DNA of 17,513 nucleotides from an uncultured delta proteobacterium (GTDB lineage: Bacteria; Desulfobacterota; Binatia; UBA9968). Position 1 is the stretch's first letter. Every line of letters begins with the position of its first letter. The translations under genes were made by a program, and so were the position numbers. The notes under the pieces are model-generated. The model was not told the DNA's origin. It ran no database searches and saw only the letters and a list, made by a program, of their open reading frames with translations. The DNA lies in NCBI GenBank assembly GCA_963840855.1, contig CAWJBB010000056.1, positions 1 to 17,513 on the forward strand, in the 5' to 3' direction. This document shows positions 201 through 17,512 of the stretch, one piece after another.

Positions 201-803
201 ATGTTAAAGCTTTATGATTTCAAATCGTCGCCCAACTGCCAGCGCGTAAAGGTCGTCTTGGAGGAAAAGAAGATCCCCTACGAGACCGTAAACGTCGACC
301 TACGCGCCGGGGAACAAAAAACCCCCGATTATCTTAAGATCAATCCCTACGGCAAGGTGCCGGCCATCGCCGATGGCGACAACGTTCTGTACGAAAGCTG
401 CATCATCAATGAATATCTAGATGAAAAGTATCCGGCGACGCGGCTCATGCCCACTGACCCTGGGGCGCGGGCGAAAGCGCGCATCCTGGTCGATTTCGGC
501 CTGACGCAAATGGACTCGGCGTATACGAAGTTGCGCATGGAAATGACAAAGGACGAAAAGGAGCGCAACCAGGAGACCCTCAATGCGGCAAAAGAGGACA
601 TCAAGAAACGGCTCCAGCGTCTGGAACAAGAACTCGGTGATAAAGAGTATCTGATGGGTAATTTTTCCCTGGTTGACGCCGACTTGATCCCGCGCTTTAC
701 GCGGCTTGAAGGTTTTGGCGTGTTACCGGATCCCTCACTGCCCCGCCTGGGCAAATATCTGCAGAGAATGAAAGACCGCCCATCGGTTAAAACGATTCTT
801 TAG
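201..803 (+). CDS. Glutathione S-transferase family protein
   Basis: 200-aa ORF with GST N-terminal motifs SPNCQRV, INPYGKVP and LYESCIINEYLDE, plus C-terminal YLMGNFSLVD. RBS GGGAG at about 189-193. Confidence 0.93.
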   Translation: MLKLYDFKSSPNCQRVKVVLEEKKIPYETVNVDLRAGEQKTPDYLKINPYGKVPAIADGDNVLYESCIINEYLDEKYPATRLMPTDPGARAKARILVDFGLTQMDSAYTKLRMEMTKDEKERNQETLNAAKEDIKKRLQRLEQELGDKEYLMGNFSLVDADLIPRFTRLEGFGVLPDPSLPRLGKYLQRMKDRPSVKTIL

Positions 804-827
804 CGGCCCGCTGAATAACCTCTGATT

Positions 828-1005
828 GCAGGCTGCTCAAAGATCTCAGAGGCGAGGCGCGCGAATGAAATGGAGCGTTGGAGTAACGGAGTATTGGAGG
901 ATTGGGGCTCGAGCCCATCATTCCGCCACTCCAGTACTCCAGCACTCCAGTCACTATGAGGTGATCGCGCGCAACGAAGCATATGAGTCTTTTTCAGCAA
1001 CCTGC
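828..1005. mobile_element. MITE/REP-like non-coding element with imperfect terminal inverted repeats and an internal inverted 8-bp tandem array
   Basis: Left end GCAGGCTGCTCAAAGATCTCA (828-848) versus reverse complement of the right end GCAGGTTGCTGAAAAAGACTCA (984-1005). Inner inverted pair GCGCGCGA (857-864) / TCGCGCGC (965-972). TGGAGYRT-type units at 871-903 are mirrored by ACTCCAG units at about 926-950 around the perfect palindrome GGGCTCGAGCCC (905-916). No transposase is encoded. Confidence 0.65.
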
Positions 1006-3403: not shown

Positions 3404-3442
3404 AAACAGCGGCCGACGGCGCGACTAAAATTGCCGGTTTGG

Positions 3443-3469
3443 GGAATAAATTCCGTTGGCGGGTTGTTT
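3443..3469 (+). promoter_or_regulatory. Putative ECF sigma-dependent (autoregulatory) promoter
   Basis: GGAATAAA (3443-3450), 15 nt, GTTT (3466-3469), directly upstream of the ECF sigma gene. Resembles the GGAATA...GTT promoters of PrtI-like/ECF26 sigma factors. Confidence 0.5.
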
Positions 3470-3536
3470 GCTCATGAAAAGGTTTCTCGCGAGATCGCGC
3501 GGCCCGCGTCATAATGAGCGAGGAGTCGAGACGACC

Positions 3537-4043
3537 GTGGCGGATGCTGACGGCATAATCAACTACATTCCGCAACTACGCCGCTACGCAAGAGCGTTGA
3601 CCGGTGATTTCACCTCGGCGGAAGACCTAGTGCAGGATACCATCGAGAGGGGTTGGAAGCGCATGGCACTTTGGCGTCCGGGCAGCGACCTGCGCGCTTG
3701 GCTCTTCACAATTATGCACAATCTTTATGTCAACCAACTCAAGGCCGGACGACGGCGCACGAGTCAGGGCATCGGGCATAACGAAGTTGATTTGCAAGTT
3801 TCGCCGACACACGACAATCAGCTCGAGTTAATCGACCTGAACAAATTCCTGCAGCGATTGCCCCATGAACAAAGGGAAGTCGTATTATTGATTGGGTTAG
3901 AACAGCTGTCCTATGACGAAGCAGCAAAGGTCCTCGGCGTGCCTATCGGCACCGTCATGTCCCGTTTGTCCCGCGGCCGCGAACAACTGCGCTCGATGAT
4001 GAACAGAGGCAGTTCTGCGGCGCAACTCAAGGTGATCAAATGA
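3537..4043 (+). CDS. ECF (sigma-70 family) RNA polymerase sigma factor, PrtI/ECF26-like
   Basis: Region 2: LRRYARALTGD..AEDLVQDT...LRAWLFTIMHN. Region 4: LSYDEAAKVLGVPIGTVMSRLSRGRE. Start taken as GTG 3537 behind GAGGAG (3520-3525); in-frame ATG 3474 is an alternative. Confidence 0.93.
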   Translation: MADADGIINYIPQLRRYARALTGDFTSAEDLVQDTIERGWKRMALWRPGSDLRAWLFTIMHNLYVNQLKAGRRRTSQGIGHNEVDLQVSPTHDNQLELIDLNKFLQRLPHEQREVVLLIGLEQLSYDEAAKVLGVPIGTVMSRLSRGREQLRSMMNRGSSAAQLKVIK

Positions 4044-4801
4044 CCACCCAAAGCGCAGCCGTATCAGAAACTGACTTACACGCTTATGTTGACGGCGGGC
4101 TGGCGCAGGAACGCCGGGGCGAAGTGGAAACTTTTCTCTCCGGCAATCCACAGGAACAGGCGCGGGTGCAAGCTTACCAGGAGCAAAATCGGATACTGCA
4201 TGCTTTCTTCGACCCAGTGCTAGCTGAACCTGTCCCAGCGAAGTGGCAAACTTTGGCGCGCCGCTGGCCCTTCCCGGCAAAAGCCGTTGCCGCGGCCCTG
4301 GCTTGGATCGTTGTCGGGGGAATATTGGGTTGGTTTCTGCGCGGAGAAACAACCAGCAGGTCAGCAAAGGACGTTGATTTTGCCCGGCAGGCGGCCCTCG
4401 CCCATACGGTTTACACCCCAGAAGTGCGCCACCCCGTGGAAGTAACCGCGGAGCAGGAAGAACACCTGGTAAACTGGCTCTCAAAGCGGTTGGGCGGTAA
4501 GCTCAGAGTCCCGCACCTGGTCGATCTCGGCTTCGAACTAGTGGGTGGACGCTTGCTTCCGGGCGATCAGGGACCAGTGGCGCAGTTCATGTACCAGGAC
4601 CCAAGCGGCAAGCGCTTGACCCTGTACGTAAAGACCGATCCCAGCTCAGAGCGTGAAACTGCTTTCCGATATTCCCAACAAGGAAAGGTCGCTGTATTTT
4701 ATTGGCTCGACCGTCGTCTAAGCTATGCGCTGTCCGGAGAGATGCCGAAAGACGAGCTTTTAAAGGTCGCCAACGCGATATACCAGAGGCTTAATCCCTA
4801 G
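4040..4801 (+). CDS. Transmembrane anti-sigma factor (PrtR/RsiW-like)
   Basis: ATGA overlap with the sigma gene. N-terminal DLHAYVDGGL, one TM helix (AVAAALAWIVVGGILGWFL), and C-terminal AHTVYTPEVRHPVEV...HLVNWLSKRLG...LVGGRLLP...AQFMYQD...RLTLY. Confidence 0.92.
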   Translation: MTTQSAAVSETDLHAYVDGGLAQERRGEVETFLSGNPQEQARVQAYQEQNRILHAFFDPVLAEPVPAKWQTLARRWPFPAKAVAAALAWIVVGGILGWFLRGETTSRSAKDVDFARQAALAHTVYTPEVRHPVEVTAEQEEHLVNWLSKRLGGKLRVPHLVDLGFELVGGRLLPGDQGPVAQFMYQDPSGKRLTLYVKTDPSSERETAFRYSQQGKVAVFYWLDRRLSYALSGEMPKDELLKVANAIYQRLNP

Positions 4802-4854
4802 TTTGAGCCATAATGGCAAAGCTGGCCGCAGAGGGCAAAAGCGCCCGTAGTTTA

Positions 4855-4885
4855 ATTTGACAATTTGTCAAATGTACGGCATAAA
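4855..4885 (+). promoter_or_regulatory. Sigma70-type promoter overlapped by a perfect 9-1-9 inverted repeat (candidate operator)
   Basis: TTGACA (4857-4862), 17 nt, CATAAA (4880-4885). ATTTGACAA-T-TTGTCAAAT (4855-4873) covers the -35 element. Confidence 0.6.
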
Positions 4886-4924
4886 GGGCCGCTCGTTAAC
4901 AAACGTTTGGCAAGGAGATTTCAT

Positions 4925-5470
4925 ATGGCACACGTTAGAAATGCGATGTTGGCCGGGATATTCAGTGCCCTCATGACACTGTTTTCGGTCTCTTCTATTG
5001 CGGCCGTCGAAGTGGGGCAACCCGCTCCCGATTTCGAACTTGACAGCACCTCGGGTGGCAAGCTCAAATTGAGTAGCCTGAAAGGTAAAAACGTACTCAT
5101 CAATTTCTACGTGCTCGATTTTAGCCCAACCTGAATCAAGGACCTTCAGGCGTCCGGTTCGGACAATCTTGCGATGTTTAAGGCCGAGAACACTGAAGTC
5201 TTAGGGATTAGCGCCAACGCCACGTTTTCTCAGAAGGCATTCGTGGATTTCGCCAAAATCAACTACCCACTACTGAGCGATAGAGACGGTAAAGTGATGC
5301 AGTCGTACGGCGTCTATGACGAGCCGAGAAAACTCGCCAAACGTTCCTACATCATTATCGATAAAGAGGGGGTGATCCAGTATCTCAACATTCGACCGAC
5401 GAACACAGAGAAAGATTTGCTCTCGACTGAACAGCTTTTAAGTGAAGTGAAGAAAGTCAACAAAAAATAG
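4925..5470 (+). CDS. Selenocysteine-containing peroxiredoxin-like protein (AhpC/TSA, AhpE/BCP-like) with N-terminal signal peptide, 181 aa
   Basis: Track ORFs 4865-5134 and 5174-5470 are in one frame, separated only by TGA 5132-5134. Read-through gives ...LINFYVLDFSPT-U-IKDLQASGSDNLAMFKAENTEVLGIS..., placing the UGA at the peroxidatic Cys position. The catalytic Arg region (AKRSYIIIDKEGVI) is retained. RBS AAGGAG (4912-4917) precedes ATG 4925. Confidence 0.88.
5135..5175 (+). promoter_or_regulatory. Putative bacterial SECIS hairpin of the peroxiredoxin
   Basis: Upper stem GTCCG (5152-5156) / CGGAC (5160-5164), with a G-initial loop GTT starting 22 nt after the UGA. Lower stem CAAGG (5137-5141) / TCTTG (5167-5171). 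Confidence 0.7.
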
Positions 5471-5512
5471 ACGTTAACGAATTCCACAAAAGGAAAGGAG
5501 ATATCAATCTTT

Positions 5513-5958
5513 ATGGGCAAATACTTTTTGATCGCGGCGGCGATCTTCACGACTTTGGTATTCTCTTCGCAGGCGTTCGCGCAGGCCGATGTCATTGAGA
5601 AGCGCCAGCAACTAATGAAAGGCCAGAGCGCTGCTGCCAAGGCGATAAAAGGCGCCGTCGAGTCAAAAGACTACGCGACTGTGGAAACCAAGGCCAAGGA
5701 AATCATGGGCACCGCCGCCAAAATTGTTGACCACGTTTCCCAAAGGGAAGCACACAGGAAAAACTAAGGCAACTGCGGCAATTTGGGAAAAATCGGATGA
5801 TTTTGCCACCAACGCCAAGAACTTGAACAAAGCGGCCGGTGAGCTCGCAGCCGCGGCCAAGAGCGACGACGCGGGAGCGTGACGCTAAGGTCAAAGCTGT
5901 AGCCGCAGCTTGCGACACTTGCCACAAAGAGTTCCGGGCCGCCAAATATTCCGAATAA
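5513..5958 (+). pseudogene. Cytochrome c' / c556 (class II cytochrome c), interrupted by at least two frameshifts (sequence error or pseudogene)
   Basis: First frame: signal peptide then VIEKRQQLMK. After a +1 shift near 5732-5736: FPKG...TKATAAIWEKSDDF...ELAAAAKS. After a second +1 shift near 5880: DAKVKAVAAA-CDTCH-KEFRAAKYSE*, with CxxCH at 5911-5925 and TAA at 5956-5958. Confidence 0.85.
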
Positions 5959-6008
5959 CGTTTCCTTAATTTTTTATTCCACCCGCCGGCGAAAACATTG
6001 ATTTTCCC

Positions 6009-6046
6009 AGGAAAGCCCTTGCGTTGGTAAGGGCTTTCTTGTGTTT
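6009..6046 (+). terminator. Probable intrinsic terminator after the peroxiredoxin-cytochrome c' unit
   Basis: GAAAGCCCTT (6011-6020), 8-nt loop, AAGGGCTTTC (6029-6038), followed by TTGTGTTT. Confidence 0.6.
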
Positions 6047-6077
6047 CGCCCGGTTCTTGGTAAACTCGTTCAATTTC

Positions 6078-7104
6078 ATGTCGTTTTGGAGGTTTACGTC
6101 GTGTCGAATACGTGCTTATTTTTTTGCGCTTTTAATCTTGCTCGCTTTAGCTTGCGGCCGCCCCCGCAACTGCCCAGCTTACCCGGCTTAACGTCGGCTA
6201 TAGCGCTGTCAGCGCCGACCAGTTGCCGGCCTGGGTTGCCAAGGACAGCGGCATCTTCACCAAGAACGGCCTGGAAGTGCAGTTGATTTTTTTCACCGGC
6301 GGCACGACGGCCATTCTCGCGCTGGTCTCGGGTGATGTGCCGATTACCCAGGTGTCCGGACCCGGCCTGGTAAGCAGTTCTCTGGCGGGTTCCGACTCGG
6401 TGTTCGTCGCTTCTGGCATTACTTCCCTCAACTACGTACTGATGGGCAGGCAAGGAGTCAAAACCACGGAACAACTTAAAGGCGGAACCCTGGCGATTAG
6501 CCGGTTCGGTTCGGCCACCGACTCCATCGCCCGTTTTGCGCTGCGGAACGTGGGGCTCACGCCGGGCAAAGATGTAACGCTCGTGCAGGTAGGCAGCGGA
6601 CCTGAGCGCCTCAACGCGTTGGTAACCGGCAAAGTAACCGCGGCGGTCATCAACCCTCCTTCCAGCTTCATGGCCGAAAAGCGCGGCCTCGCGGTGCTCG
6701 CGGATGTGGCGAAGATGGGGTTGGTGTTTCAGCACACCGGCGCGGCAACCACCAAAAAATATATCCGCGAGCACCAGGACACAGTTCGCCGCTACGTCAA
6801 GGCTCACGTTGAAGCAGTGCACAAAATGTGGACGGACAAGGAAGCCACCATCCGTGCCATCGGTAAACACATGCCGGGCGTAGAACGAGAGTTTCTGGAG
6901 AAGAGCTACGAAAACGTCATGAGCGAAACGCTATTTTCGAAAAAGCAGTATCCGAGCCTAGAGGGCTTGAAGACGGTTCTCAACGAGATTGCGGAGCGGG
7001 ACCCGCGGGCGAAGAGCGCCAAACCCGAACAATTCGCCGATTCAAGTTTTATCAGGGAACTTGACCAGAGCGGCTATATCGACAGCCTCTATAAGAAAAA
7101 ATGA
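6078..7104 (+). CDS. ABC transporter substrate-binding protein (NMT1/THI5, SsuA/TauA-like), 5' end frameshifted
   Basis: The main frame is open from 6151 (LAAAPATAQLTRLNVGYSAVSADQLPAWVAKDSGIFTKNGLEVQL...) to TGA 7102-7104. The signal peptide (RIRAYFFALLILLALA) is in another frame starting at ATG 6078. GTG 6101 behind GGAGG (6088-6092) is an alternative start that needs a further shift. Confidence 0.85.
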
Positions 7105-7107
7105 CTC

Positions 7108-7207
7108 CGTTCAAATCGTTCAAGCCGTTCAAGCGATTCAAATCGTCTCGATTCATCCAATCCAAAACGGCTTGAACTGTTTCAACGTTTTGAACCGCTT
7201 GAACGAT
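7108..7207. repeat. Inverted 9-bp tandem array (CGTTCAARY units), copy 1
   Basis: CGTTCAAAT CGTTCAAGC CGTTCAAGC GATTCAAAT (7108-7143) is mirrored by GCTTGAACT GTTTCAACG TTTTGAACC GCTTGAACG (7170-7205). Confidence 0.85.
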
Positions 7208-7216
7208 ACGTTTTAG

Positions 7217-7480
7217 ATGCTCACCGACAAGAAGGGCGAGGAGGCCGCGCGGGAAATCGCTGCCTGGGCGAATCGTATTTCGTCTACCGTTGACAAGGAG
7301 CTCACCGTAGATGTCCACGACGACCACCCTGACTCGAACACTTACTTGATCCGACTTGGCAAAGGCGCCCGTGTCCTGCTCTTCCGCTTATCCTATGGCC
7401 AGGCGCACGGCGACGGGCGGGAAGCCGAATGCGAACGCACCCTGAGGCGTAAAATTAAAGACCTGGCGAATTTGATTTAG
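7217..7480 (+). CDS. Small hypothetical protein (87 aa)
   Basis: ATG-started ORF that fills the gap between two repeat elements and has protein-like composition. No recognised motif and no clear RBS. Confidence 0.65.
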   Translation: MLTDKKGEEAAREIAAWANRISSTVDKELTVDVHDDHPDSNTYLIRLGKGARVLLFRLSYGQAHGDGREAECERTLRRKIKDLANLI

Positions 7481-7486
7481 AATTTC

Positions 7487-7559
7487 CGTTCAAACCATTT
7501 CAAACGTTCGAGTCATTCAAATCGTCTCAGGGCACTCGCGAATCGAACGTTTTGAACTG
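7487..7559. repeat. Inverted 9-bp tandem array, copy 2 (degenerate)
   Basis: CGTTCAAAC CATTTCAAA CGTTCGAGT CATTCAAAT (7487-7522), then TCGAACGTTTTGAAC. Shares the exact strings ATTCAAATCGTCTC and AACGTTTTGAAC with copy 1. Confidence 0.8.
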
Positions 7560-8537
7560 TTATTCTCGGTGCAGCAGCCGCGCCGCGTCTTTGGCGAAAT
7601 AGGTAAGAATCATGTCCGCGCCGGCGCGGCGGATCGAAAGTAGAACCTCCATCATGATGCGCTGTTCGTCGATCCAGCCGTTGGCCCCCGCCGCTTTGAT
7701 CATCGAGTACTCGCCGCTGACGTTATAGGCAGCCACCGGATAGCCGAACTTCTGCTTGACGCGGTAAACGACGTCGAGGTAGGCCATCGCCGGTTTTACC
7801 ATGACGATGTCCGCGCCCTCGCGGATGTCCATTTCGACTTCCCGCAACGCCTCATCTGCGTTTGCCGGGTCCATCTGGTACGAGCGGCGGTCGCCGAACT
7901 GCGGTGTCGACTCCGCCGCTTCGCGAAACGGCCCGTAAAATCCCGACGCGTATTTAGCCGCGTAAGCCATGATCGCGGTGTGCGCAAAACCGTTTTCGTC
8001 GAGCGACTTGCGAATCGCGCCGACCCGCCCATCCATCATATCCGATGGCCCGACAATATCGGCGCCGGCGCGGGCGTGAGACAGCGCTTCTTTCGCGAGC
8101 AACTCCAGGGTGCTGTCGTTGTCAACGTCGCCATTTTTGATCACCCCACAGTGGCCATGGTCGGTGTATTCGCACAAACAGACGTCGGTGATCACCAGCA
8201 TCTCGGGAGTTTTCTCTTTCATGAGCCGAATCGCCCGCTGCACCACACCGTCGTCAGCGTAGGCTTCGCTGCCCGCGCCATCTTTGTGTTCCGGAATACC
8301 GAAGAGAATTACCGCCGGTATTCCTAACGCACTGGCCTCCTCGCACTCGCGCGCCGCGCGGTCTACGGACAATTGCGCCACGCCGGGCATGGACGAAACC
8401 GGCTGAACCTTGTCCTTTCCCGGACCGATGAATAGCGGATAGATGAGATTCTTCGGGCTGAGGCTCGTTTCACGCACCATCGTCCTGATTCTTTCATTGC
8501 GCCTCAGTCGTCTTGGCCGGTAACGCGGAAAGTCCAT
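7560..8537 (-). CDS. hemB: Porphobilinogen synthase (delta-aminolevulinic acid dehydratase)
   Basis: RPRRLRR N-terminus, Zn-binding [60 protein letters not shown]. Confidence 0.98.
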
Positions 8538-8583
8538 TTGTTTCTCCGACCTCCCCTCCCATTTCCTCCCCCGCTTACGCAGG

Positions 8584-9402
8584 TTAGGGTGGGGGCAAAT
8601 TGCCTTGGAAATATTCGACCATAGCGTATACCAATCCGGTAATCGTAAACTCCCGCGCCGATACTGCAGCGATACCGCCTAGCTCTTCGATGGTTTTTTT
8701 TGTGATCGGTCCGATGCAGGCAATCGGCGTCTCGGCCAAGATATCCGCCAACCGTTGCCCGTCGAACAGCCGCGCGAAATTCGATACCGTGCTGGGACTA
8801 GTGAACGTAACCATGTCGATGGCCCGCCGCCGGAGCGTTTCTTTCAGCTTGCCTGTGTCGGCTTGCGGAATGACCGTGCGATAGGTTTCGACGACATCGA
8901 CCTCGGCGCCCCACTGCCTTAGCGTTTCGGGTAAAATTTCTCGCGCTTTGGCCGCGCGTGGGATCAGGACGCGCTTGCCGCGCATGGCCGCCGTATTCAG
9001 GACGTCAAGAATGCCCTCGGCCTGGTAAGTCGCGGGCACCAAGCAGTTCTTCACGCCGGCCGTTTCCAAGCGTTTCGCCGTTTCAGGCCCGATAGCGGCG
9101 ATTTGAACGTCCTCCAGTTCGGCCACGCTTCTTTTATGTTGAGCCATGCATTCAAAAAATCTCTCGACGCCGTTGGTGCTGGTGAACATCAGCCAGTCGT
9201 AGCAATTTAATTTTTTGATGGCTTCCTCGAGCGGCCGTGGATCCCTAGGAGGATGTATCTCAATCGTCGGGAATTCGATCACCTCGCCACCCTGCTCTTC
9301 AATTCTGCGCGCCAAGCTATCCGCTTGGGCCCGGGCCCGCGTAATCACGATGCGCTTCCCCAACAGAATCTGCGACGCCGGCGCCGGGTGGTTACCGTTC
9401 AT
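8584..9402 (-). CDS. hemD: Uroporphyrinogen-III synthase
   Basis: [53 protein letters not shown]. Located between hemC and hemB. Confidence 0.93.
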
Positions 9403-9416
9403 GTCCTACGACTCGC

Positions 9417-10337
9417 TTACTCCGGCTGCAACCGCGCCAGCAGCTTTTGCGCCCCCTGGCTGAGCAGCCGATCAGCCAACTCTTTTCCCAACTCTTCGGC
9501 TTTCATGGCCAGTCCAGCCAGTTCGGCCTTGAAAAGCTCATGGCCACCCGGGTCCGCGACAACGCCGATGATCTCGATCAATTCACCATAAACCTGAGCC
9601 CGTGCCCCTACGGGCAAATGGCAACCGCCACCGAGGCGTTTGAGCAGACCGCGCTCGCCCTGCACCTCGAAATGCGTCGGCATATCATCGAGGAACTCGT
9701 ATTCTTCGCGCAAGGAATCATCGTCGCGCGCCTCGACGGCCAGCGCGCCTTGAGCCGCGGCGCCCACGCAGATATCTCCAGGAAGAAATTCGCTAATGCG
9801 GTCTTCCCTGCCGATGCGCTTGAGTCCCGCCGCGGCCATGACCAGGGCATCGACCTCGCCGGCGTCGAGTTTTTTGAGACGGGTATCGATGTTGCCGCGA
9901 ATCGGCGCCACGGATAAATCGGCGCGGTAATGTAAAAGCTGGGCTTTGCGCCTCAAGCTGCCGGTGCCGATCCGCGCGCCGGCAGGCAATTCGCTCAACC
10001 GCGCGCCGCTTCGCGCCACCAACACATCGCGCGGATCTTCCCGCTCCGGCACGGCGATGATGGCCAGGCCCGGCGCCAATTCCGTCGGCAGGTCCTTCAT
10101 CGAATGCACGGCGAGATCGATTTCGCCGCTGAGCAAAGCCTCTTCGATCTCTTTGGTGAAGACGCCTTTGCCGCCAATGGCCTGGAGGGAAGCTTCGACG
10201 AAGCGGTCGCCACTGGTCTTGATGATTCGAAGGTTCACCTCCGCCGCCGGCCACTGCCGCTCGATCTCTCCCTTCAGCCAATTGGCCTGCGCCAACGCGA
10301 GGGCGCTCCCGCGGGTGCCGATGCGGACGGTTTTCAC
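9417..10337 (-). CDS. hemC: Hydroxymethylbilane synthase (porphobilinogen deaminase)
   Basis: IGTRGSALALAQA, GGKGVFTKEIE, AVHSMKDLP, GTGSLRRKAQ, IRGNIDTRL, and the cofactor-binding Cys in LGGGCHLPVG. Confidence 0.97.
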   Translation of the reverse strand: MKTVRIGTRGSALALAQANWLKGEIERQWPAAEVNLRIIKTSGDRFVEASLQAIGGKGVFTKEIEEALLSGEIDLAVHSMKDLPTELAPGLAIIAVPEREDPRDVLVARSGARLSELPAGARIGTGSLRRKAQLLHYRADLSVAPIRGNIDTRLKKLDAGEVDALVMAAAGLKRIGREDRISEFLPGDICVGAAAQGALAVEARDDDSLREEYEFLDDMPTHFEVQGERGLLKRLGGGCHLPVGARAQVYGELIEIIGVVADPGGHELFKAELAGLAMKAEELGKELADRLLSQGAQKLLARLQPE

Positions 10338-10383
10338 GACACTAACCTCGCGAGTTTATCCGCTCCTACGCGGCGGCATCTGA

Positions 10384-11670
10384 TCATTTGCCCTCCAGGT
10401 CAAAGAGCTTTTTCAAGGCGGCTATAGACCGCATGTCCTCTTCGTCTTCTTCCGGCGCGTCTTTCTTCAAATGTGAGATCGGGCCGTGCAGCATCTTGTT
10501 GATCATCGCTGCGGTCATGTCGTCGAGGGCTTGCCGTTGTTCCGAGGACAAATCTTTCAGATTGCCGCTCAAGGACCTCGCCAATTCGCGCCGGCGAATC
10601 TCGTCAAAGTGCGCGCGCAGCGCAGCGATGGTTGGCGCGCGCTCCAGCGATCCGATCCAACGCCCGAAACTCTCGACTTCCTGGACCACGATCTCTTCCG
10701 CTTTTTGCGCCTCGTTGGATCGCTCCTGGAGATTTTCTTCGGCGACTTCCTTCAAGTCATCGATGTTGTAGAGATAGGCGTTGTCAATATCGTTGATGGC
10801 AGAGTCGAAATTTCGCCGATCGCCGATGTCGATAAAAAACATCGGCTGCTGCTTGCGCTCGCGCAGCACTTTTTCCACCGCCGGTGCATCCACCAGGATT
10901 TCCGGCGAGCCGGTGCAGCCAATCACCAGGTCGGCCATCTTAAGATAGCGCGGAAAATCTTCGAATAGGATCGGACTTCCATGTATCCGCTCGGCCACCG
11001 CCACCGCCCGTTCAAAAGTACGATTGGTCACCATCAGACTCTTTACGCCGCTGCGCTGGAGCTGGCGCGCCATCAGATCGCCCATCTTGCCCGCGCCGAT
11101 CAGCATGACGGTCTTGTCATCGAAGCTATCGAAGATCCGCTTCGCGAGATCTACCGCCACCGAACTCACGGAAACGGCGCGGCTGGCGATGCCGGTCTCG
11201 GTGCGCACCCGCTTGGCCACGAAAAAGGACCGGTGGAATAGCCGATGCAAGACCGTTCCCACAGTACCGGCTTGCCGCGCAGCATCGTAAAACTCTTTAA
11301 GCTGGCCCAATATCTGCGGCTCGCCCACTACCATGGAGTCGAGGCTTGCCGCCACGCGAAATAAATGGCGCACCGCATCGGCGCCCCGATAAGTGTAAAG
11401 ATGATCCTCCAGACTGCTCCCCGCATGCTCAGCGCGCTGCTCGTCGAGAAATACTTTCATGTCATGACAGGCGGTCTGCGCATCGGCGACCGCCGCGACC
11501 ACTTCGACGCGGTTGCAAGTCGAGAGAATCACGCTTTCTTGGACGGCGGGGTAGCCGCGCAACCGCACCAACGCGTCGCGCACATAGCCGTTTTCGAAAG
11601 CGACGCTTTCGCGCACTTCGATAGGCGCGCTACGGTGATTCAAACCGACGATGACGATCTCTTTTTGCAC
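10384..11670 (-). CDS. hemA: Glutamyl-tRNA reductase
   Basis: VGLNHRSAPIEVRE, active-site LSTCNRVE, HLFRVAASLDSMVVGEPQILGQ, NADPH-binding IGAGKMG. Confidence 0.97.
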   Translation of the reverse strand: MQKEIVIVGLNHRSAPIEVRESVAFENGYVRDALVRLRGYPAVQESVILSTCNRVEVVAAVADAQTACHDMKVFLDEQRAEHAGSSLEDHLYTYRGADAVRHLFRVAASLDSMVVGEPQILGQLKEFYDAARQAGTVGTVLHRLFHRSFFVAKRVRTETGIASRAVSVSSVAVDLAKRIFDSFDDKTVMLIGAGKMGDLMARQLQRSGVKSLMVTNRTFERAVAVAERIHGSPILFEDFPRYLKMADLVIGCTGSPEILVDAPAVEKVLRERKQQPMFFIDIGDRRNFDSAINDIDNAYLYNIDDLKEVAEENLQERSNEAQKAEEIVVQEVESFGRWIGSLERAPTIAALRAHFDEIRRRELARSLSGNLKDLSSEQRQALDDMTAAMINKMLHGPISHLKKDAPEEDEEDMRSIAALKKLFDLEGK

Positions 11671-11673
11671 GGC

Positions 11674-12492
11674 TTATTCGAACCGGCCCCCATGCCGGCT
11701 GGGGAACAAGGTTTCGCCCCAGATAAAGTAACCAAGCACAACGCAGAATCCGAACATGGTAAGAATCGCGGCCTTCTTGCCACGCAAACCCGCGGTGATA
11801 CGCCCGTGCAACAAAGCACCATAAAAAAGCCAGGCGATTCCCGATGAAATCTGCCGCGGGTCCCAAGTCCAATAATCCCCCCAGTAAATGCGCGCCAAGA
11901 GGCTCCCGGTCAAGATGCCGAGGGTCATCAGCGGGAAACCCCATACGAGCAACTGATAGTTCAACCGGTCCAGCGCCTCCAACGACGGGATTCGCTTGAG
12001 GAGAGCGGTCATCTTTTTATGCTTGAGGCCGCGTTCTTGAAGCAGATAAATCAGGCTCACCGCGAAGGCTAAAGCGAAGACCGCGTTGCCGAGGAACGCG
12101 AGCGTGAAATGAACCGGCAGCCAATAAGTCCTCAGTCCCGGCGGCAGCTCACCGCTGGCAGCGCCGAACGCGAAGGCGGCAAGAGTCATGAGGGATGCCA
12201 CCGGCGTCACAATGGCGCCGAGAACCGTGAGCCGGTATTTGATTTGAATGACTAAATAAAGCGCGACAATGAGCCAGCTCTTGAAAGTCAGCGCCTCGTG
12301 AAACTGTGTTACAGCGGGATATCCTTCCTGGAGAAAATGGACGCTCAGCGCCGAGGTGTGGAGCAAGAATCCAGCGAGCAAGACTAGTGTCGGCAGCCGC
12401 GACGCGGTATTGCGAACGAGTACATAGAAGACAAAACTCGCGGTCGCTAGAAGATACAATACCGCGGTGGCCTTGAGCAGGATGATATCCAT
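11674..12492 (-). CDS. ccsA: Cytochrome c assembly family membrane protein (CcsA/HemX-like)
   Basis: Multi-TM protein with YWLPVHFTLAFLG, WGDYWTWDPRQ (WWD-like) and LLHGRITAGLRGKKAA. Sits upstream of hemA. ATG 12492 preferred over TTG 12516 because the latter region contains the promoter -10. Confidence 0.88.
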   Translation of the reverse strand: MDIILLKATAVLYLLATASFVFYVLVRNTASRLPTLVLLAGFLLHTSALSVHFLQEGYPAVTQFHEALTFKSWLIVALYLVIQIKYRLTVLGAIVTPVASLMTLAAFAFGAASGELPPGLRTYWLPVHFTLAFLGNAVFALAFAVSLIYLLQERGLKHKKMTALLKRIPSLEALDRLNYQLLVWGFPLMTLGILTGSLLARIYWGDYWTWDPRQISSGIAWLFYGALLHGRITAGLRGKKAAILTMFGFCVVLGYFIWGETLFPSRHGGRFE

Positions 12493-12504
12493 GATTTCAG
12501 GGCC

Positions 12505-12532
12505 ATTATAGGACAACGTCGGCGGCCTTCAA
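12505..12532 (-). promoter_or_regulatory. Sigma70-type promoter of the ccsA-hem operon
   Basis: Minus strand TTGAAG (12532-12527), 16 nt, perfect TATAAT (12510-12505), 12 nt before ATG 12492. No RBS. Confidence 0.6.
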
Positions 12533-12602
12533 GCCCGTAGAATGCGCTGATTTCTACGCCCCAAATCCAGTCCGCCTGCTGTGCATCTCCCCCCGCCGCA
12601 AC

Positions 12603-12653
12603 CTGGATGCCCGCTGGAGCTTGTCCTGAGTCCAGCCGAAGGGCGGGCATGAC
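12603..12653 (-). repeat. REP-like palindrome GTCATGCCCGC...GCGGGCATCCAG with a second repeat unit in its loop
   Basis: Arms ATGCCCGC (12607-12614) / GCGGGCAT (12643-12650). On the minus strand the loop carries CCCTTCGGCTGGACTCAGGACAAGCT. Confidence 0.6.
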
Positions 12654-12685
12654 GATTGAGGAAACGCCTTCCCCCTCGTCTCACC

Positions 12686-13432
12686 TTACCCCACAAAATG
12701 CGCGCCGCCGTCGACATTCAGCAGCTGCCCGGTCATGAAATCGCTCTCGGGTGACGCCAAGAACATCACGGTGCCAACCAGATCATTTTCCACCTGCGTG
12801 CGTTTGAGCGCGCGACCAGCGACGCGGCTGGCATTGAAGGCTGGATCCACTTGCCGTCCTTCGGTGACGACGAAGCCTGGGCTTACCGTGTTGACGCAAA
12901 TGTTATAATCACCGAGCTCTTTTGCCATCGCCCGAGTCATAGCGATGAGCGCGCCTTTCGAGGTCACGTAATGAATATAATTCTGGCCGCCGTTGAGCGC
13001 CGTGCCGGAAGAAATATTGATGATCTTCCCCTTTCCCTGCTGCTTCATATACGGAAATGCCGCCTTGGCGCAGAGCCACGACCCGCGCACGTTGACCGCC
13101 ATCGCCTTGTCGAATTCATCGACTGCCATTTCCCAAAACACGCTTTTCTTGACGCTCATGAAATACGCCGCATTGTTGACCAGCACATCGACGCCGCCGA
13201 ACTGCTTCGCCACTTCGTCGACCATCGCCCTGACGCTCTTTTCATCCGAAACATCGCACACCATGCTGAGGGCCGTGCCGCCCATGTCCCGGATCGCTTT
13301 CACCACGTGATCGGCGCTGGCAATGTCGGGCAAAGCGACTTTCGCGCCTTCTTTAGCGAAGCCAATGGCGTAAGCTTTGCCGATCTTGCCGCCGCCGCCG
13401 GTAATGATGACTGATTTGTCCGTGAAGCGCAT
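12686..13432 (-). CDS. SDR family NAD(P)-dependent oxidoreductase
   Basis: ITGGGGKIG, VDVLVNNAA, IINISS, catalytic YVTSK, VNTVSPG, FMTGQLLNVDGG. RBS AAGGAGG (13444-13438). Confidence 0.95.
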   Translation of the reverse strand: MRFTDKSVIITGGGGKIGKAYAIGFAKEGAKVALPDIASADHVVKAIRDMGGTALSMVCDVSDEKSVRAMVDEVAKQFGGVDVLVNNAAYFMSVKKSVFWEMAVDEFDKAMAVNVRGSWLCAKAAFPYMKQQGKGKIINISSGTALNGGQNYIHYVTSKGALIAMTRAMAKELGDYNICVNTVSPGFVVTEGRQVDPAFNASRVAGRALKRTQVENDLVGTVMFLASPESDFMTGQLLNVDGGAHFVG

Positions 13433-13680: not shown

Positions 13681-13749
13681 ATTCAAATTACCAGACTACA
13701 CTTAATCTTATAGTTTAAGTTATCGAAAGTAGCACAGGAGGTTTTGCCA

Positions 13750-14850
13750 ATGTCAGATTACCGCATCATCGACGCCGATGGGCATGTCATGGAACTGGAC
13801 AGCGAACTTCGCGAATTCATCGGCCCGCCCTATAAGGATTTGGAATGGCACCAGAGCTATTCCTTCTGGCCGGGTCTCACGATGGACGGCTATCTCCGTT
13901 CGCTGCGCCAGAAGGGCGGCTGGGCTGGCGGCGGCGACGGACCCAAGGCCAATCATTGGCTAGATTTTCTCGACAAAAACAAAATCGAATTGACCGTTCT
14001 TTACCCGACGCAGGGTCTCACCCACGGCGCCATTCAAGACAAAGACTGGGCGATCTGCATGGCGCGGGCCTATAACGACTGGCTTTATAACAAGTTCATG
14101 AAAGTCAGCCCGCGACTGGTGGGGGTCGCGCTCCTGCCGATTCAAGACATTGCCGAAGCCGTGAAAGAACTGCGCCGCGCTGTTAGTGAACTAGGTATGG
14201 TCGGAGCCGTGCTTCCGGCGGTGGCGCCGGCGGGAAGGCTTTACAGCGGGCCTGAGTTCTATCCGCTCTGGGAAGAAGCGCAGAAACTCGACGTGCCGGT
14301 TTCTACGCACGGCGGGCTCAGCATGCCGTCCCTCGGGCTGGACATGGTCAACAACTTTACCATCGGACATACTTTAGAACATCCCTTCGCGCAGATTCGC
14401 CAATTCGTCGCTATGATGTTCGAAGGCGTGTTCGAGCTTTTCCCCAATTTCAAATTCGGCTGCATCGAATGCGGCGTCGGTTGGGTGCCGTACATGATGG
14501 ACCGCATGGACGAGGAACAAGAGCGCAAAGGCCACTACTCGCCGCGCTGCAAGCTCAAGCCGAGCGAATACGTCAAAAAGGGCAATATCTACTTCGCCGT
14601 GGAGGTCGAAGAATCGGCGCTGCCCCTCGCCGCCAAGGTAGCGAACGACAACGCGCTCATCTGGGCATCGGACTATCCCCACGAACGCGACCAGCGCGAC
14701 TTCAGCCAGGACATCCCGAATTTGATCAATCGCAAAGACGTGAGCGACGAGCTGAAGCGCAAGATTTTCTGGGACAACCCGCTGAGATTCTATCCCAGGC
14801 TCAAGACGCGAGTCGAAAAGGAGCAGACGAGAAAAGCCGCCAACGCGTAA
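13750..14850 (+). CDS. Amidohydrolase family protein (Amidohydro_2, decarboxylase/hydratase-like)
   Basis: IIDADGHVME, VLYPT, ARAYNDWL, PLWEEAQKLDVPVSTH, IECGVGWVP, WASDYPH, KIFWDNPLRFY. RBS AGGAGG (13736-13741) favours ATG 13750. Confidence 0.93.
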   Translation: MSDYRIIDADGHVMELDSELREFIGPPYKDLEWHQSYSFWPGLTMDGYLRSLRQKGGWAGGGDGPKANHWLDFLDKNKIELTVLYPTQGLTHGAIQDKDWAICMARAYNDWLYNKFMKVSPRLVGVALLPIQDIAEAVKELRRAVSELGMVGAVLPAVAPAGRLYSGPEFYPLWEEAQKLDVPVSTHGGLSMPSLGLDMVNNFTIGHTLEHPFAQIRQFVAMMFEGVFELFPNFKFGCIECGVGWVPYMMDRMDEEQERKGHYSPRCKLKPSEYVKKGNIYFAVEVEESALPLAAKVANDNALIWASDYPHERDQRDFSQDIPNLINRKDVSDELKRKIFWDNPLRFYPRLKTRVEKEQTRKAANA

Positions 14851-14987: not shown

Positions 14988-15740
14988 ATGACCGCTGACG
15001 AGTTCATCGCCGAACTGTGGAGCTACGCCGCCGAAGTCCCGATGGAACAACACCCGTGGTTCGACGGCATCATCAAGCACCGTTGGAGCAAAGAGCAGAT
15101 CATCCTGGGTGAAGTGCAGCATTATCTGCGGGTGCGCACGAATCCGATCTTCTTCGGTTACATGGCCATCAATGCCGTATCGGCCAAGGAATACGCGGTA
15201 ATGGACACCGTCCTGGAAAATTTCATGGAAGAGCTGGGCGGCAAACACACGCACGTCGATATCATGCTGCAATTCCTCCAAGAAGGCGGCATCTCGCGTG
15301 AAGAAGCTGATAACGCCGAGCCCGCGCCCGGGACGTTAGCGGCAATCGAAATGATCATCGGGTGCTGCCAGCGCCGCTCGGCATTGGAAGGTGTCGCCAT
15401 GCTCGCCTTCGTCGAAAGCCAACTTGGCGGCGCTGGTAAAATTTCCGCGAAGGTCTATCGAGAGCTAACCGGTCACTATGGGTTTTCACCACGCGCGGCG
15501 CAAACCTACGATTTGCACGCGGCCCAGGACGAAGGCCACGGCAGCCGTCAGATTGACGCAATTCGCCTGTTAGCGAAGGACGACGAGACCCAGAAAAAGA
15601 TTCGTGCCGCGGTCAAACTTGGGCTGACTGCATTCACCTTGGAATGGGACGGCCATGTCCAGGCAATGACGGGCAAGCGGGAGTTCTGGGGTGGAGTGGC
15701 GGATCTCAATATGCGGCAACCAACGGTTAGATTGCGATAA
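14988..15740 (+). CDS. Heme-oxygenase-like iron-containing redox enzyme (PqqC/CADD/TenA superfamily), 250 aa
   Basis: Start taken as ATG 14988 (MTADEFIAELW...HPWF). Di-iron-type ligand motifs E-x6-H (ELGGKHTH), FVES and H-x3-D-x2-H (HAAQDEGH). The upstream part of the 423-aa track ORF is a shadow overlapping the amidohydrolase. Confidence 0.85.
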   Translation: MTADEFIAELWSYAAEVPMEQHPWFDGIIKHRWSKEQIILGEVQHYLRVRTNPIFFGYMAINAVSAKEYAVMDTVLENFMEELGGKHTHVDIMLQFLQEGGISREEADNAEPAPGTLAAIEMIIGCCQRRSALEGVAMLAFVESQLGGAGKISAKVYRELTGHYGFSPRAAQTYDLHAAQDEGHGSRQIDAIRLLAKDDETQKKIRAAVKLGLTAFTLEWDGHVQAMTGKREFWGGVADLNMRQPTVRLR

Positions 15741-15902: not shown

Positions 15903-16124
15903 TCAGAGGGGCCAATCTTTCGGCAGATCTTTTCTGAGTTTCTGATAATCTGCGTCTTCGGCATAGGCCTTCCGGATGCGCTGGAGCTCTTTGAGCAGCT
16001 TTTTCTGATCCATCTTCAAAGAATTGGAGACCATACCCGTGGTCTCTTCGAAGCCGACGCCTCAATTGCTCCGTCAGCCGCGCATGCGTCTGAGGACGTA
16101 CAGGTCTTTTTCTTTATCCGCCAC
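15903..16124 (-). CDS. Putative small double-selenocysteine protein (73 aa, U-x-x-x-U motif), not in the ORF track
   Basis: GGAG, 6 nt, GTG (16124). Translates to MADKEKDLYVLRRMRG-U-RSN-U-GVGFEETTGMVSNSLKMDQKKLLKELQRIRKAYAEDADYQKLRKDLPKDWPL*, with TGA at 16076-16074 and 16064-16062. A SECIS-like hairpin lies downstream, and the ORF fills the end of a minus-strand operon. Confidence 0.75.
16014..16053 (-). promoter_or_regulatory. Putative bacterial SECIS hairpin of the UxxxU protein
   Basis: mRNA reads CUUCGAA-GAGACCA-[CGGGUA]-UGGUCUC-(CAAUUC bulge)-UUUGAAG: a 7-bp lower stem, a perfect 7-bp upper stem and a G-rich loop starting 22 nt after the second UGA (34 nt after the first). Confidence 0.7.
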
Positions 16125-16160
16125 GGTTTTCTCCACTGAGTTCGGGATCGCTCACGCCCG

Positions 16161-16580
16161 CTAGAATTTTACGCCGGTGAAGCCGACCGCTTGCGTCGTT
16201 ATCAACTCGGTTGTTGCGTTCGGTTCGCCCTTTTCATTGACGACTATTCGTAGCCGGACAAATATACGCCACGGCTCGCCTCGCCAGTTTGCCTGGAAAA
16301 TCACGAATGCGTTTTCGGTAACCAACCCCGACGGTTCATCGCAGCGCACCAAAGTCGAAAACTGCCTCGTTGCACCGGGCGCCAGATCGACCGGCGGATC
16401 GAATCCAAGTTCCTTCGACCTAAATTGCCCATGCGGCAAGCGAACCGCTATGATGCGAATCAGCTCCGCGCCGAGGTTTTGAACGCTCCATCCAACGCTC
16501 CAACGCGCCAGCGTGTCCTTTCGTTCGACCGAACTCTGGACAAGCGAAATTTGCGGCTCTGCATCTTTCACTGAAGCCAC
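16161..16580 (-). CDS. Hypothetical protein (139 aa, beta-rich)
   Basis: GTG start 8 nt after the upstream stop codon. Alternating beta-strand patterns (WSVGWSVQN, FVIFQANW, WRIFVRLRIVV). Family not recognised. Confidence 0.7.
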   Translation of the reverse strand: MASVKDAEPQISLVQSSVERKDTLARWSVGWSVQNLGAELIRIIAVRLPHGQFRSKELGFDPPVDLAPGATRQFSTLVRCDEPSGLVTENAFVIFQANWRGEPWRIFVRLRIVVNEKGEPNATTELITTQAVGFTGVKF

Positions 16581-16588
16581 CGCGCCGT

Positions 16589-17512
16589 TTACGGTTTGAG
16601 CCGTCCTTCGACCCGCAGCTCCTGCTGGGCAAGCTTGAGAACACGATCGTTGACCACTCTTTCGAGAGTGAACTTGCTATCGACAAGACCGGCACGGATG
16701 TCCTCGTCGAGCATTTGTTGAAGTCCAGAGGTGACTATCGATAAATCAGCGGTAAGGCCCGGCGCGAAAAGGTCCCAGGCGGCGCCGATGATTTCGGGAT
16801 CCCCTGTCAGGCCGGAATCGAAGCCGGCCTTGAGCGCCTCTTTCTTGTTGTACTTGGCGAGCTGGATTCCTTGAATATAAGCTTTTAGCATCCGTTTACT
16901 CGTCTCGGGATATTTTTCCAGGACTTCGTTGCGACTGACGATGATGTTTTGCGGTATGCCCAAAGACTCGCTCAAGTTGCTGATCAAAGAATAACCGCTC
17001 CTCAGTAGCCGCACCCCGTCTTCAGGCGAAAATGGCGCAGCCGCAATGATTCCCTTTTCGATGGCCGCCGCGCGCAACACGGTTCCGCCGATGGCCCGCA
17101 AGGTAACATCCTTGTCCGGGTTGATGTTATATTTTCTGAGAAACGCCTTCATGGCAAATTCCGAATATGTGCCGGCTCCGGTTATGCCGATCATTTTGCC
17201 CTTGAGATCCTCTACCGTCCGAGTCTGCTTGTTGCCAAGCAAGATGTAATTGGTCGTGCCGGAGGTGCATCCAATGATGGAAAGATCCAATCCGCGGGCG
17301 CGGCTGCGAAAAACCGCCTGCGCGCCGCCAATGGCGGCAAAGTCAACTTCACCGGAGACCAGCGCGGCTATGGCCGCCGGACCGCCGCGAATCAGGATCG
17401 GTTCGATACTCAACCCTTGTTGCTTGAAAAAACCTCGCGCCAGCGCCGCCCGAAAGGGAATCTCACTGTTCCAAGCGAGGCTTACGAACACCATTCGAAT
17501 GTTTTTCTTTTC
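16589..17512 (-). CDS. ABC transporter substrate-binding protein (NMT1/THI5, SsuA/TauA-like), 5'-truncated by the window edge
   Basis: Frame is open to the window end (EKKNIRMVFVSLAW...). Motifs GFFKQQGLSIE, AALVSGEVDFA, TVEDLKGKMIGIT, INPDKDVTL. Confidence 0.9.
   Translation of the reverse strand, partial: EKKNIRMVFVSLAWNSEIPFRAALARGFFKQQGLSIEPILIRGGPAAIAALVSGEVDFAAIGGAQAVFRSRARGLDLSIIGCTSGTTNYILLGNKQTRTVEDLKGKMIGITGAGTYSEFAMKAFLRKYNINPDKDVTLRAIGGTVLRAAAIEKGIIAAAPFSPEDGVRLLRSGYSLISNLSESLGIPQNIIVSRNEVLEKYPETSKRMLKAYIQGIQLAKYNKKEALKAGFDSGLTGDPEIIGAAWDLFAPGLTADLSIVTSGLQQMLDEDIRAGLVDSKFTLERVVNDRVLKLAQQELRVEGRLKP

Follow-up and report, generated by a model that had tools for sequence, protein, structure and literature searches.

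The canonical bacterial SECIS element, as in Escherichia coli fdhF, is a hairpin that lies within the open reading frame just 3' of the Sec-encoding UGA and is read by SelB. In fdhF, about 11 nt separate the UGA from the SelB-binding minihelix, which has a bulged U and a GGUC-type loop, and this UGA-to-hairpin spacing is reportedly strict. Single SECIS elements that serve several UGAs are found in eukaryotic SELENOP and in archaeal multi-Sec proteins; these elements lie in untranslated regions, act over a long range and depend on other factors. The possibility that one downstream SECIS serves two close UGAs was raised in 2026 for the UXXU hydrogenases (PMC13582414). Families with two Sec residues are also listed in Table 1 of PMC13188914, with the motifs UxxU (Prx-like, NF041115 metal-binding and FmdB family) and UxxxxU (TsoB, NF045694), all of them predicted from sequence.

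The locus described here lies in a 17,513-nt stretch of DNA from an uncultured delta proteobacterium (contig CAWJBB010000056.1 of GCA_963840855.1; hereafter the window, meaning this whole stretch). It is a real, previously unannotated gene for a predicted double selenoprotein, with a conserved, putative two-hairpin recoding element. Unlike the SELENOP and archaeal systems, the candidate element is located within the ORF, a few nucleotides from the codons. It resembles the UXXU hydrogenases in that two in-frame UGAs stand close together where Cys would be, and a single SECIS, with a G in its loop, is predicted downstream of them (PMC13582414). However, the hydrogenase UGAs are 9 nt apart rather than 12 nt, the proteins are unrelated, and in the present family every member has both UGAs fixed and intermediates of the CXXU kind do not occur; nor do the passages on the hydrogenases in PMC13582414 mention a helper hairpin containing the second UGA. 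As in the UxxU and UxxxxU families, two Sec residues a few positions apart take the place of a Cys pair. The NCBIfam models of those families do not match this protein at E up to 1, though, and a string search did not find a U-x3-U motif in Table 1 of PMC13188914. Nor does the string 'UxxxU' occur in the main text of the review PMC13188914 or of the deep-Sep paper PMC12013277, and no literature combining 'selenoprotein' with 'Binatia' was found.

The gene has 73 codons, with a GTG start at 16124-16122 and its own TGA stop at 15905-15903, and the stretch singled out in the preliminary description makes sense only on the minus strand. The frame reads (GTG)ADKEKDLYVLRRMRG-U-RSN-U-GVGFEETTGMVSNSLKMDQKK...DLPKDWPL-stop. 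The two in-frame TGAs, whose spacing of 12 nt (start to start) is as first described, are codons 17 (UGA1) and 21 (UGA2). A GGAG motif upstream of the start is likely to be a Shine-Dalgarno sequence, and AGGA/GGAG-like motifs precede the starts of homologues too. Coordinates are collected in the table.

Table. Positions of the U-x3-U gene, its RNA elements and its neighbours in the window
Feature	Position	Strand	Basis and remarks
U-x3-U selenoprotein gene	15903..16124	-	Translation of the minus-strand frame; 73 codons
GGAG, likely Shine-Dalgarno	16131..16134	-	Read from the sequence; 6 nt upstream of GTG
UGA1 (codon 17)	16074..16076	-	TGA in 119/119 genes; aligns with an invariant Cys of the Cys-forms
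UGA2 (codon 21)	16062..16064	-	TGA in 119/119 genes; aligns with an invariant Cys of the Cys-forms
H-A, 6-bp hairpin UGAGGC/GUCG/GCUUCG	16049..16064	-	RNAalifold consensus
H-B, 7-bp hairpin GAGACCA/CGGGUA/UGGUCUC	16027..16046	-	RNAalifold consensus and window fold
139-aa protein, predicted beta-sandwich	16161..16580	-	Alignment A5; AlphaFold2 pLDDT 91
NMT1/THI5-like ABC substrate-binding protein	16589..17494	-	Pfam PF09084, E 2.5e-22
Haem-oxygenase-like/CADD-family protein	14988..15740	+	Pfam PF14518, NCBIfam TIGR04305
Amidohydro_2 gene, precedes the CADD-like gene	13744..14850	+	Pfam PF04909

A word-based search returned 43 database homologues, of which only 4 are full length; the other 39 are calls of 43 or 51 residues that start just after UGA2, so that public gene calls shorten the family to these lengths. 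Nucleotide loci were collected from genomes (34 loci, labelled as 11 Candidatus Binatia, 13 'delta proteobacterium', 4 Syntrophobacter(aceae), 2 Thermodesulfobacteriota and 4 with other labels) and from metagenomes (80 loci, the best 80 of 525 confirmed stretches). Together with the window, and leaving out one locus that is cut off (L054), these 114 sequences reduce to 101 unique genes. The gene is also present in 22 of 201 sampled genomes from the class of one carrier genome, all with both TGAs, and these contributed 18 additional, more divergent unique genes, giving 119 in total. Among 400 other genomes of the phylum of the window's genome no homologue was found, the weak matches, none with a TGA, having E values no better than 4e-4.

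Codons 17 and 21 are both TGA in all 101 unique genes, and in 119 of 119 once the further 18 are added; TGY is seen at neither position. The terminal stop, on the other hand, varies (TGA 37, TAG 33, TAA 30 and TAT 1 among the first 101 unique genes). The frame and the length of 73 residues are the same in 33 genome loci, and nearly all have ATG or GTG at the homologous start. Before, between and after the UGAs, residues are conserved while their codons change synonymously, in the same frame through codons 2-16 and 18-20: among the 101 unique genes, Leu11 uses six different codons and Asn20 is AAT in 86 and AAC in 15. Conserved residues with free synonymous change around the UGAs indicate that the frame is translated throughout.

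A profile search run exhaustively against 1.84 billion representatives yielded 115 matches, about 20 of which are full-length Cys-forms of about 71 residues, with C-x3-C at exactly the UGA columns (type GMGNCYxxCHxDFExTVxMV...LRxRLPxEFPF). Where a source is named for a Cys-form, it is a Chloroflexota MAG or a Heimdall-, Hod-, Mars-archaeal or Sulfolobaceae MAG, and every such protein is annotated as 'hypothetical protein'. The full-length Cys-forms align over all 73 residues. In a joint alignment of 11 Sec-forms and 17 Cys-forms (A3), Cys stands at both UGA positions of the homologues, and the invariant columns are C/U17, C/U21, F25, T28, M31, R64, P68 and P72. Residues 22-33 are frozen in the Sec-forms but variable in the Cys-forms, which is the pattern that constraint of the protein by an RNA element would produce. 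One Cys-form, P0044, was not found in 400 sampled genomes from the phylum of genome G406, where the sole match was the Sec-form of G406 itself. With the UGAs fixed, the true stop variable and the distant homologues carrying C-x3-C, the gene is best regarded as a real U-x3-U double selenoprotein. Both UGAs are almost certainly recoded, as was supposed at the outset, and most likely both encode selenocysteine, to judge from these sequence patterns.

Some database proteins depart from this pattern. Tryptophan is given at both sites in three of them, one of which (P0003) is locus L132 with TGA read as W, and TGG occurs at the UGA positions in none of the loci; thus the W-forms are gene-calling artefacts and not Trp variants. 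Decoding of UGA as Trp (code 4) was considered and rejected, as the W-proteins are code-4 calls of TGA in genomes that use TGA as a true stop, this gene included. Two further full-length homologues, P0011 and P0054, read ...QKCAVDGAIEGLGFEE... and ...QCAVDAAIEALGFEE... instead of ...MRGURRNUGLGFEE.... The variant stretch is the +1-frame product of the UGA-containing stretch, which implies a compensated pair of indels that removes both UGAs; either a genuine lineage without Sec or homopolymer errors could account for this.

In the RNAalifold prediction from the unique genes, two hairpins, H-A and H-B, lie next to each other downstream of UGA1. H-B is the upper part of a stem-loop in the preliminary description, and its exact position was confirmed: from UGA2 it is 15 nt to the start of the stem and 22 nt to that of the loop, and from UGA1 27 and 34 nt, respectively. 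All seven pairs are present in 119 of 119 genes; six never vary and one changes only from A-U to G-U. The 6-nt loop is CGGGNA across homologues. Its second position, a G, is the wobble base of Thr29 (ACG), a synonymous site, yet it is invariant in all 119 genes, and the Gly30 codon within the same loop varies (GGT 78, GGC 18, GGA 4, GGG 1). If codon choice were free, 12.5% of the synonymous encodings of ETTGMVS would keep the hairpin. The published criteria for bacterial SECIS elements include a loop of 3-9 nt, an upper stem of 4-16 bp, a G in the first two loop positions, a UGA-to-loop distance of 16-37 nt and an MFE of -7.5 kcal/mol or lower (PMC13188914). H-B lies within these limits for both UGAs in loop, stem, G at position 2, distances of 22 and 34 nt and energy (-9.2 kcal/mol), in agreement with the earlier claim that both distances fall in the usual range. 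It is the only hairpin here that does so.

H-A is smaller (consensus UGAGGC/NUCG/GCUUCG) and contains UGA2 as the first three bases of its 5' arm. It starts 9 nt after UGA1, and two unpaired bases lie between it and H-B. All six pairs are standard in 119 of 119 genes, with paired cells at 100% and seven one-sided changes, all compatible. The wobble bases of codons 22, 24 and 25 within it are frozen (Gly22 is GGC in 96 of 96 and Gly24 in 100 of 101), although only 25% of the synonymous encodings of U-G-[LV]-G-F-E would keep the hairpin if the choice were free. Measured against the same published limits, H-A lacks a G in the first two loop positions in 81 of 119 genes and has one in 38; its loop starts 15 nt after UGA1, below the range of 16-37 nt, and its energy, -6.8 kcal/mol for the window and -5.2 for a typical relative, is weaker than -7.5 kcal/mol.

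Pair counts on the 101-sequence alignment, which has 92 distinct rows, show standard pairs in 1196 of 1196 cells of the 13 pairs. Nine of the pairs never vary, and the other four vary on one side only and always compatibly (8 cells). Among the 92 rows no pair of H-A or H-B has changed on both sides; a shuffle control is therefore uninformative, and the case for the RNA structure rests on conservation, not on covariation. Thus, of the conservation and covariation that the preliminary description had named as a check on the hairpin, the former is found (intact in 119 of 119) and the latter is not, as the element hardly varies. The constraint is clear at the codon level: mean codon entropy is 0.195 bit within codons 22-32 (10 codons) versus 1.10 bit elsewhere (56 codons; Mann-Whitney p about 1e-5), with values of 0.14 bit or less at codons 22, 24-29 and 32 and a minimum of 0.26 bit outside codons 22-32. 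The fold of the 81-nt stretch is not beyond chance in energy (MFE -23.2 kcal/mol, z = -1.20; an equally stable fold was reached by 29 of 200 shuffles).

Other pairings of the same region are less well kept. The lower seven base pairs that had been described beneath H-B (columns 33-39 with 66-72) are not conserved, being 70.5% paired, with two pairs failing in 72 and 74 of the 92 sequences; they form in the window's own sequence when a ribosome on UGA2 holds the first nucleotides. An alternate pairing, CGGAGC/GCUUCG, had been proposed as mutually exclusive with the SECIS hairpin. It can form in the window's own sequence but is 67.4% paired overall, with two pairs failing in 68 and 82 of 92. The conserved second structure is instead H-A, which shares only the 3' arm with that pairing, holds UGA2 in its stem rather than in its loop, and is compatible with H-B. 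The suggestion that the RNA refolds as the ribosome advances survives in part: a conserved second structure must indeed melt between UGA1 and UGA2, but it is a different hairpin from the one proposed. A 6-bp pairing of GGYUGA with UCGGCU, with UGA1 inside, competes with H-A and excludes it, and is largely conserved. The hairpin GGCUGACG/CGUCGGCU, found as the MFE structure when only the window's own copy of this region was folded, was rejected since two inner pairs fail in 61 and 70 of the 92 sequences; its outer six pairs are kept in most sequences and may compete with H-A, which this hairpin would exclude.

The bases flanking H-B (16047 and 16026; columns 39 and 60 of alignment A4) switch together from GAA...UCC to GAG...UCG in seven sequences (L053, L152, L159, L163, L164, L166 and L167), and neither change is seen alone. 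These bases form no standard pair in either state, and the joint switch may reflect shared ancestry. In the GAG...UCG variant, UUCGAG and CUCGAA could form a competing 6-bp helix.

H-B shares with canonical bacterial SECIS elements its place in the coding region and a G near the start of the apical loop. It does not have the features of the E. coli fdhF type as commonly described: there is no bulged U, the stem begins 15 and 27 nt from the UGAs and not about 11 nt, and the loop is CGGGNA. Two UGAs lie upstream of it, and a separate small hairpin replaces the continuous lower stem.

The window's genome (7.1 Mb in 93 contigs, 94% complete, 8.3% contamination) contains selA and selD above cut-off, the latter with a UGA of its own (GUAAK). 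Its selB is in two overlapping frames with a combined score of about 400 bits (G000:C1:38613-40500, minus strand; overlap 39976-39989; 207.6 and 193 bits), and is a single ORF of about 640 aa in relatives; the split is a frameshift or an assembly error. In five other carrier genomes, selB is above cut-off in four. A tRNA-Sec was not found in the 94%-complete assembly (39 tRNAs), and tRNA-SeC(tca) is present in four of five related genomes that carry the gene.

The window's genome is rich in selenoprotein genes, with at least 14 others of selenoprotein families having an in-frame TGA; such a TGA is seen in 9 of 21 AhpC/TSA matches, 3 of 11 CMD/AhpD-like matches, FdhA and SelD. None of its six FmdB-family matches has a TGA, and so no UxxU gene of that family is seen there. 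In MFE folds, 11 of the 14 other Sec sites are followed by hairpins with a G in the loop at 16-25 nt after the UGA (loops GGUCU, GUU, AGUU, AGUG, GGC and AGCC); the selD loop begins at 33 nt, and two cases are unclear. selD is the only precedent within the genome for a spacing of about 33 nt, and was set aside as weak support because its hairpin is kept only in this genome and in two of five relatives. A second selenoprotein gene lies in the window itself, a Prx-like (AhpC/TSA) ORF at 4925..5470 (plus strand) with a TGA at 5132-5134 (FSPTUIKDL), which ORF lists split at the TGA. It is followed by a hairpin, GUCCG/GUU/CGGAC, with its loop starting 22 nt after the UGA. Another contig of the genome (G000:C41:66569-66778, plus strand) carries the double-UGA gene a second time, in near-identical form and with the same upstream neighbour, and that contig also has a copy of the Prx-like gene (C41:77433-77645); the second copy is either a real duplication or strain redundancy in a bin with 8.3% contamination.

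H-B is very probably the SECIS of UGA2. That it also serves UGA1 is somewhat less secure, but still favoured: conservation is just as strict at UGA1 as at UGA2, and there is no standard SelB site other than H-B, so that H-B most likely serves both. One element for two UGAs, as proposed in the preliminary description, is thus the best-supported reading of the sequence data, held with moderate confidence. The fuller version of this reading, held with similar, moderate confidence, is that H-A is folded while UGA1 is decoded and melted while UGA2 is. H-B would bind SelB.GTP.Sec-tRNASec and pass the tRNA to the ribosome. While UGA1 occupies the A site, H-A would begin 9 nt further on, far enough to stay folded at the mRNA entrance; folded, it would loop out 16 nt, leaving H-B at 9 + 2 unpaired nucleotides from UGA1. 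Four codons later H-A would necessarily have melted, and H-B would be 15 nt from UGA2. When the RNA that a ribosome at UGA1 or at UGA2 leaves uncovered is folded, both proposed states are recovered. That H-A acts as a spacer or a ribosome pause site is put forward only tentatively; it might equally be a weak second SelB site. More speculative again, and on balance doubtful, is a two-state module in which the hairpin built from UGA2 is a collapsible spacer that lets one SECIS insert two Sec residues one helical turn apart. If true, this would mean that mRNA refolding can bend the positional rule for bacterial SECIS elements. The reportedly strict spacing of about 11 nt in E. coli, if applicable here, argues against one hairpin acting at two positions 12 nt apart.

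Alternatively, each UGA might have a SECIS of its own, with H-A binding SelB for UGA1 and, after its melting, H-B serving UGA2. The usual rule of one nearby element per UGA would then be preserved. The intactness of H-A in 119 of 119 genes, with its frozen wobble bases, speaks for this reading; moreover, the H-A loop begins with G in the window and in 36 other sequences (GUCG in 34), resembling the GUU and AGUU loops at other Sec sites of the same genome. This is unlikely, however, as H-A fails the criteria of PMC13188914 in most members, by its loop (G in 38 of 119), its distance of 15 nt and its energy of -6.8 to -5.2 kcal/mol, and as the first base of its loop follows the choice between Val and Leu at codon 23 and is itself unconserved. 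A single SECIS for both UGAs therefore remains preferred over two.

What the UGAs encode can be questioned separately. One or both might be read as Cys by a SelB/SECIS-dependent tRNA of the tRNA-ReC (SelC*) type, or as a mixture of Sec and Cys. PMC13582414 finds such tRNAs enriched among genomes encoding UXXU hydrogenases and points out that sequence-based calls are limited in this respect; in addition, the homologues work with Cys at both sites. Were Cys the product, though, TGY would be expected somewhere among the 119 genes and there is none. The Rfam tRNA-Sec model has one strong match each in four of five related genomes, all of them tRNA-SeC(tca), and the next-best matches examined are ordinary tRNA-Ser or tRNA-Leu, making Cys decoding improbable. 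Still less credible, to the point of being negligible, is that the UGAs are plain stops, separating a short leader ORF from an independent protein of 43 or 51 aa or marking a decaying pseudogene. Public gene callers annotate just this tail, but codons 2-16 and 18-20 show, in one frame, synonymous change with conservation of the protein, TGA is the sole triplet seen at codons 17 and 21 where the true stop uses all three codons, the Cys-forms align over their full length, and the length of 73 aa is fixed across 33 loci. Sec at both positions thus remains the preferred reading.

The gene adds an unannotated family of predicted selenoproteins, with members in 22 of the 201 genomes sampled from one bacterial class and in more than 500 metagenome stretches. 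It also offers a compact natural test case, comprising 38 nt and a pair of UGAs 12 nt apart together with a canonical hairpin and a conserved helper hairpin, for a question already raised in print, namely whether a bacterial SECIS, thought to be strictly position-dependent, can serve two codons.

Both Sec codons are fixed in every bacterial member seen and Cys appears only in distant homologues, which points to a function that may depend on a diselenide or a two-selenolate site. An AlphaFold2 model (28-row alignment) has four helices with a mean pLDDT of 86, and places U17 and U21 one turn from each other on a single helix. The selenoprotein has no NCBIfam (release 20) match at E up to 1 and one Pfam-A match far below cut-off, and 12 Cys-forms gave nothing over the Pfam or NCBIfam cut-offs. 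Foldseek against the PDB found no match at E 1 or lower, and the ESM Atlas only sub-threshold HTH-like neighbours. As a guess, the protein could be a diselenide redox switch or a soft-metal site.

A homologue of the 139-aa protein is encoded directly upstream in all ten loci inspected; in further loci the conserved motif at its C-terminus can be recognised upstream of the selenoprotein gene. This protein has no Pfam or NCBIfam match, and Foldseek gives only generic Ig-like folds (TM 0.3-0.4). Its ORF is in the frame of the selenoprotein gene, with TAG-CGG-GCG-TGA between them (16161..16152, minus strand); this arrangement looks coincidental, since spacer and stops differ in relatives. An NMT1-like gene lies upstream of the 139-aa partner in six of the ten loci (L024, L025, L028, L031, L036 and L051). 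On the other side, the CADD-like gene is convergent in all ten, and an amidohydrolase gene follows it in three (L030, L044 and L051). The window from 201 to 13432 is ordinary context, with genes for GST, penicillin amidase, an ECF sigma factor and SDR, as well as a haem-biosynthesis run of HemB, HemD, HemC, HemA and a cytochrome c assembly protein.
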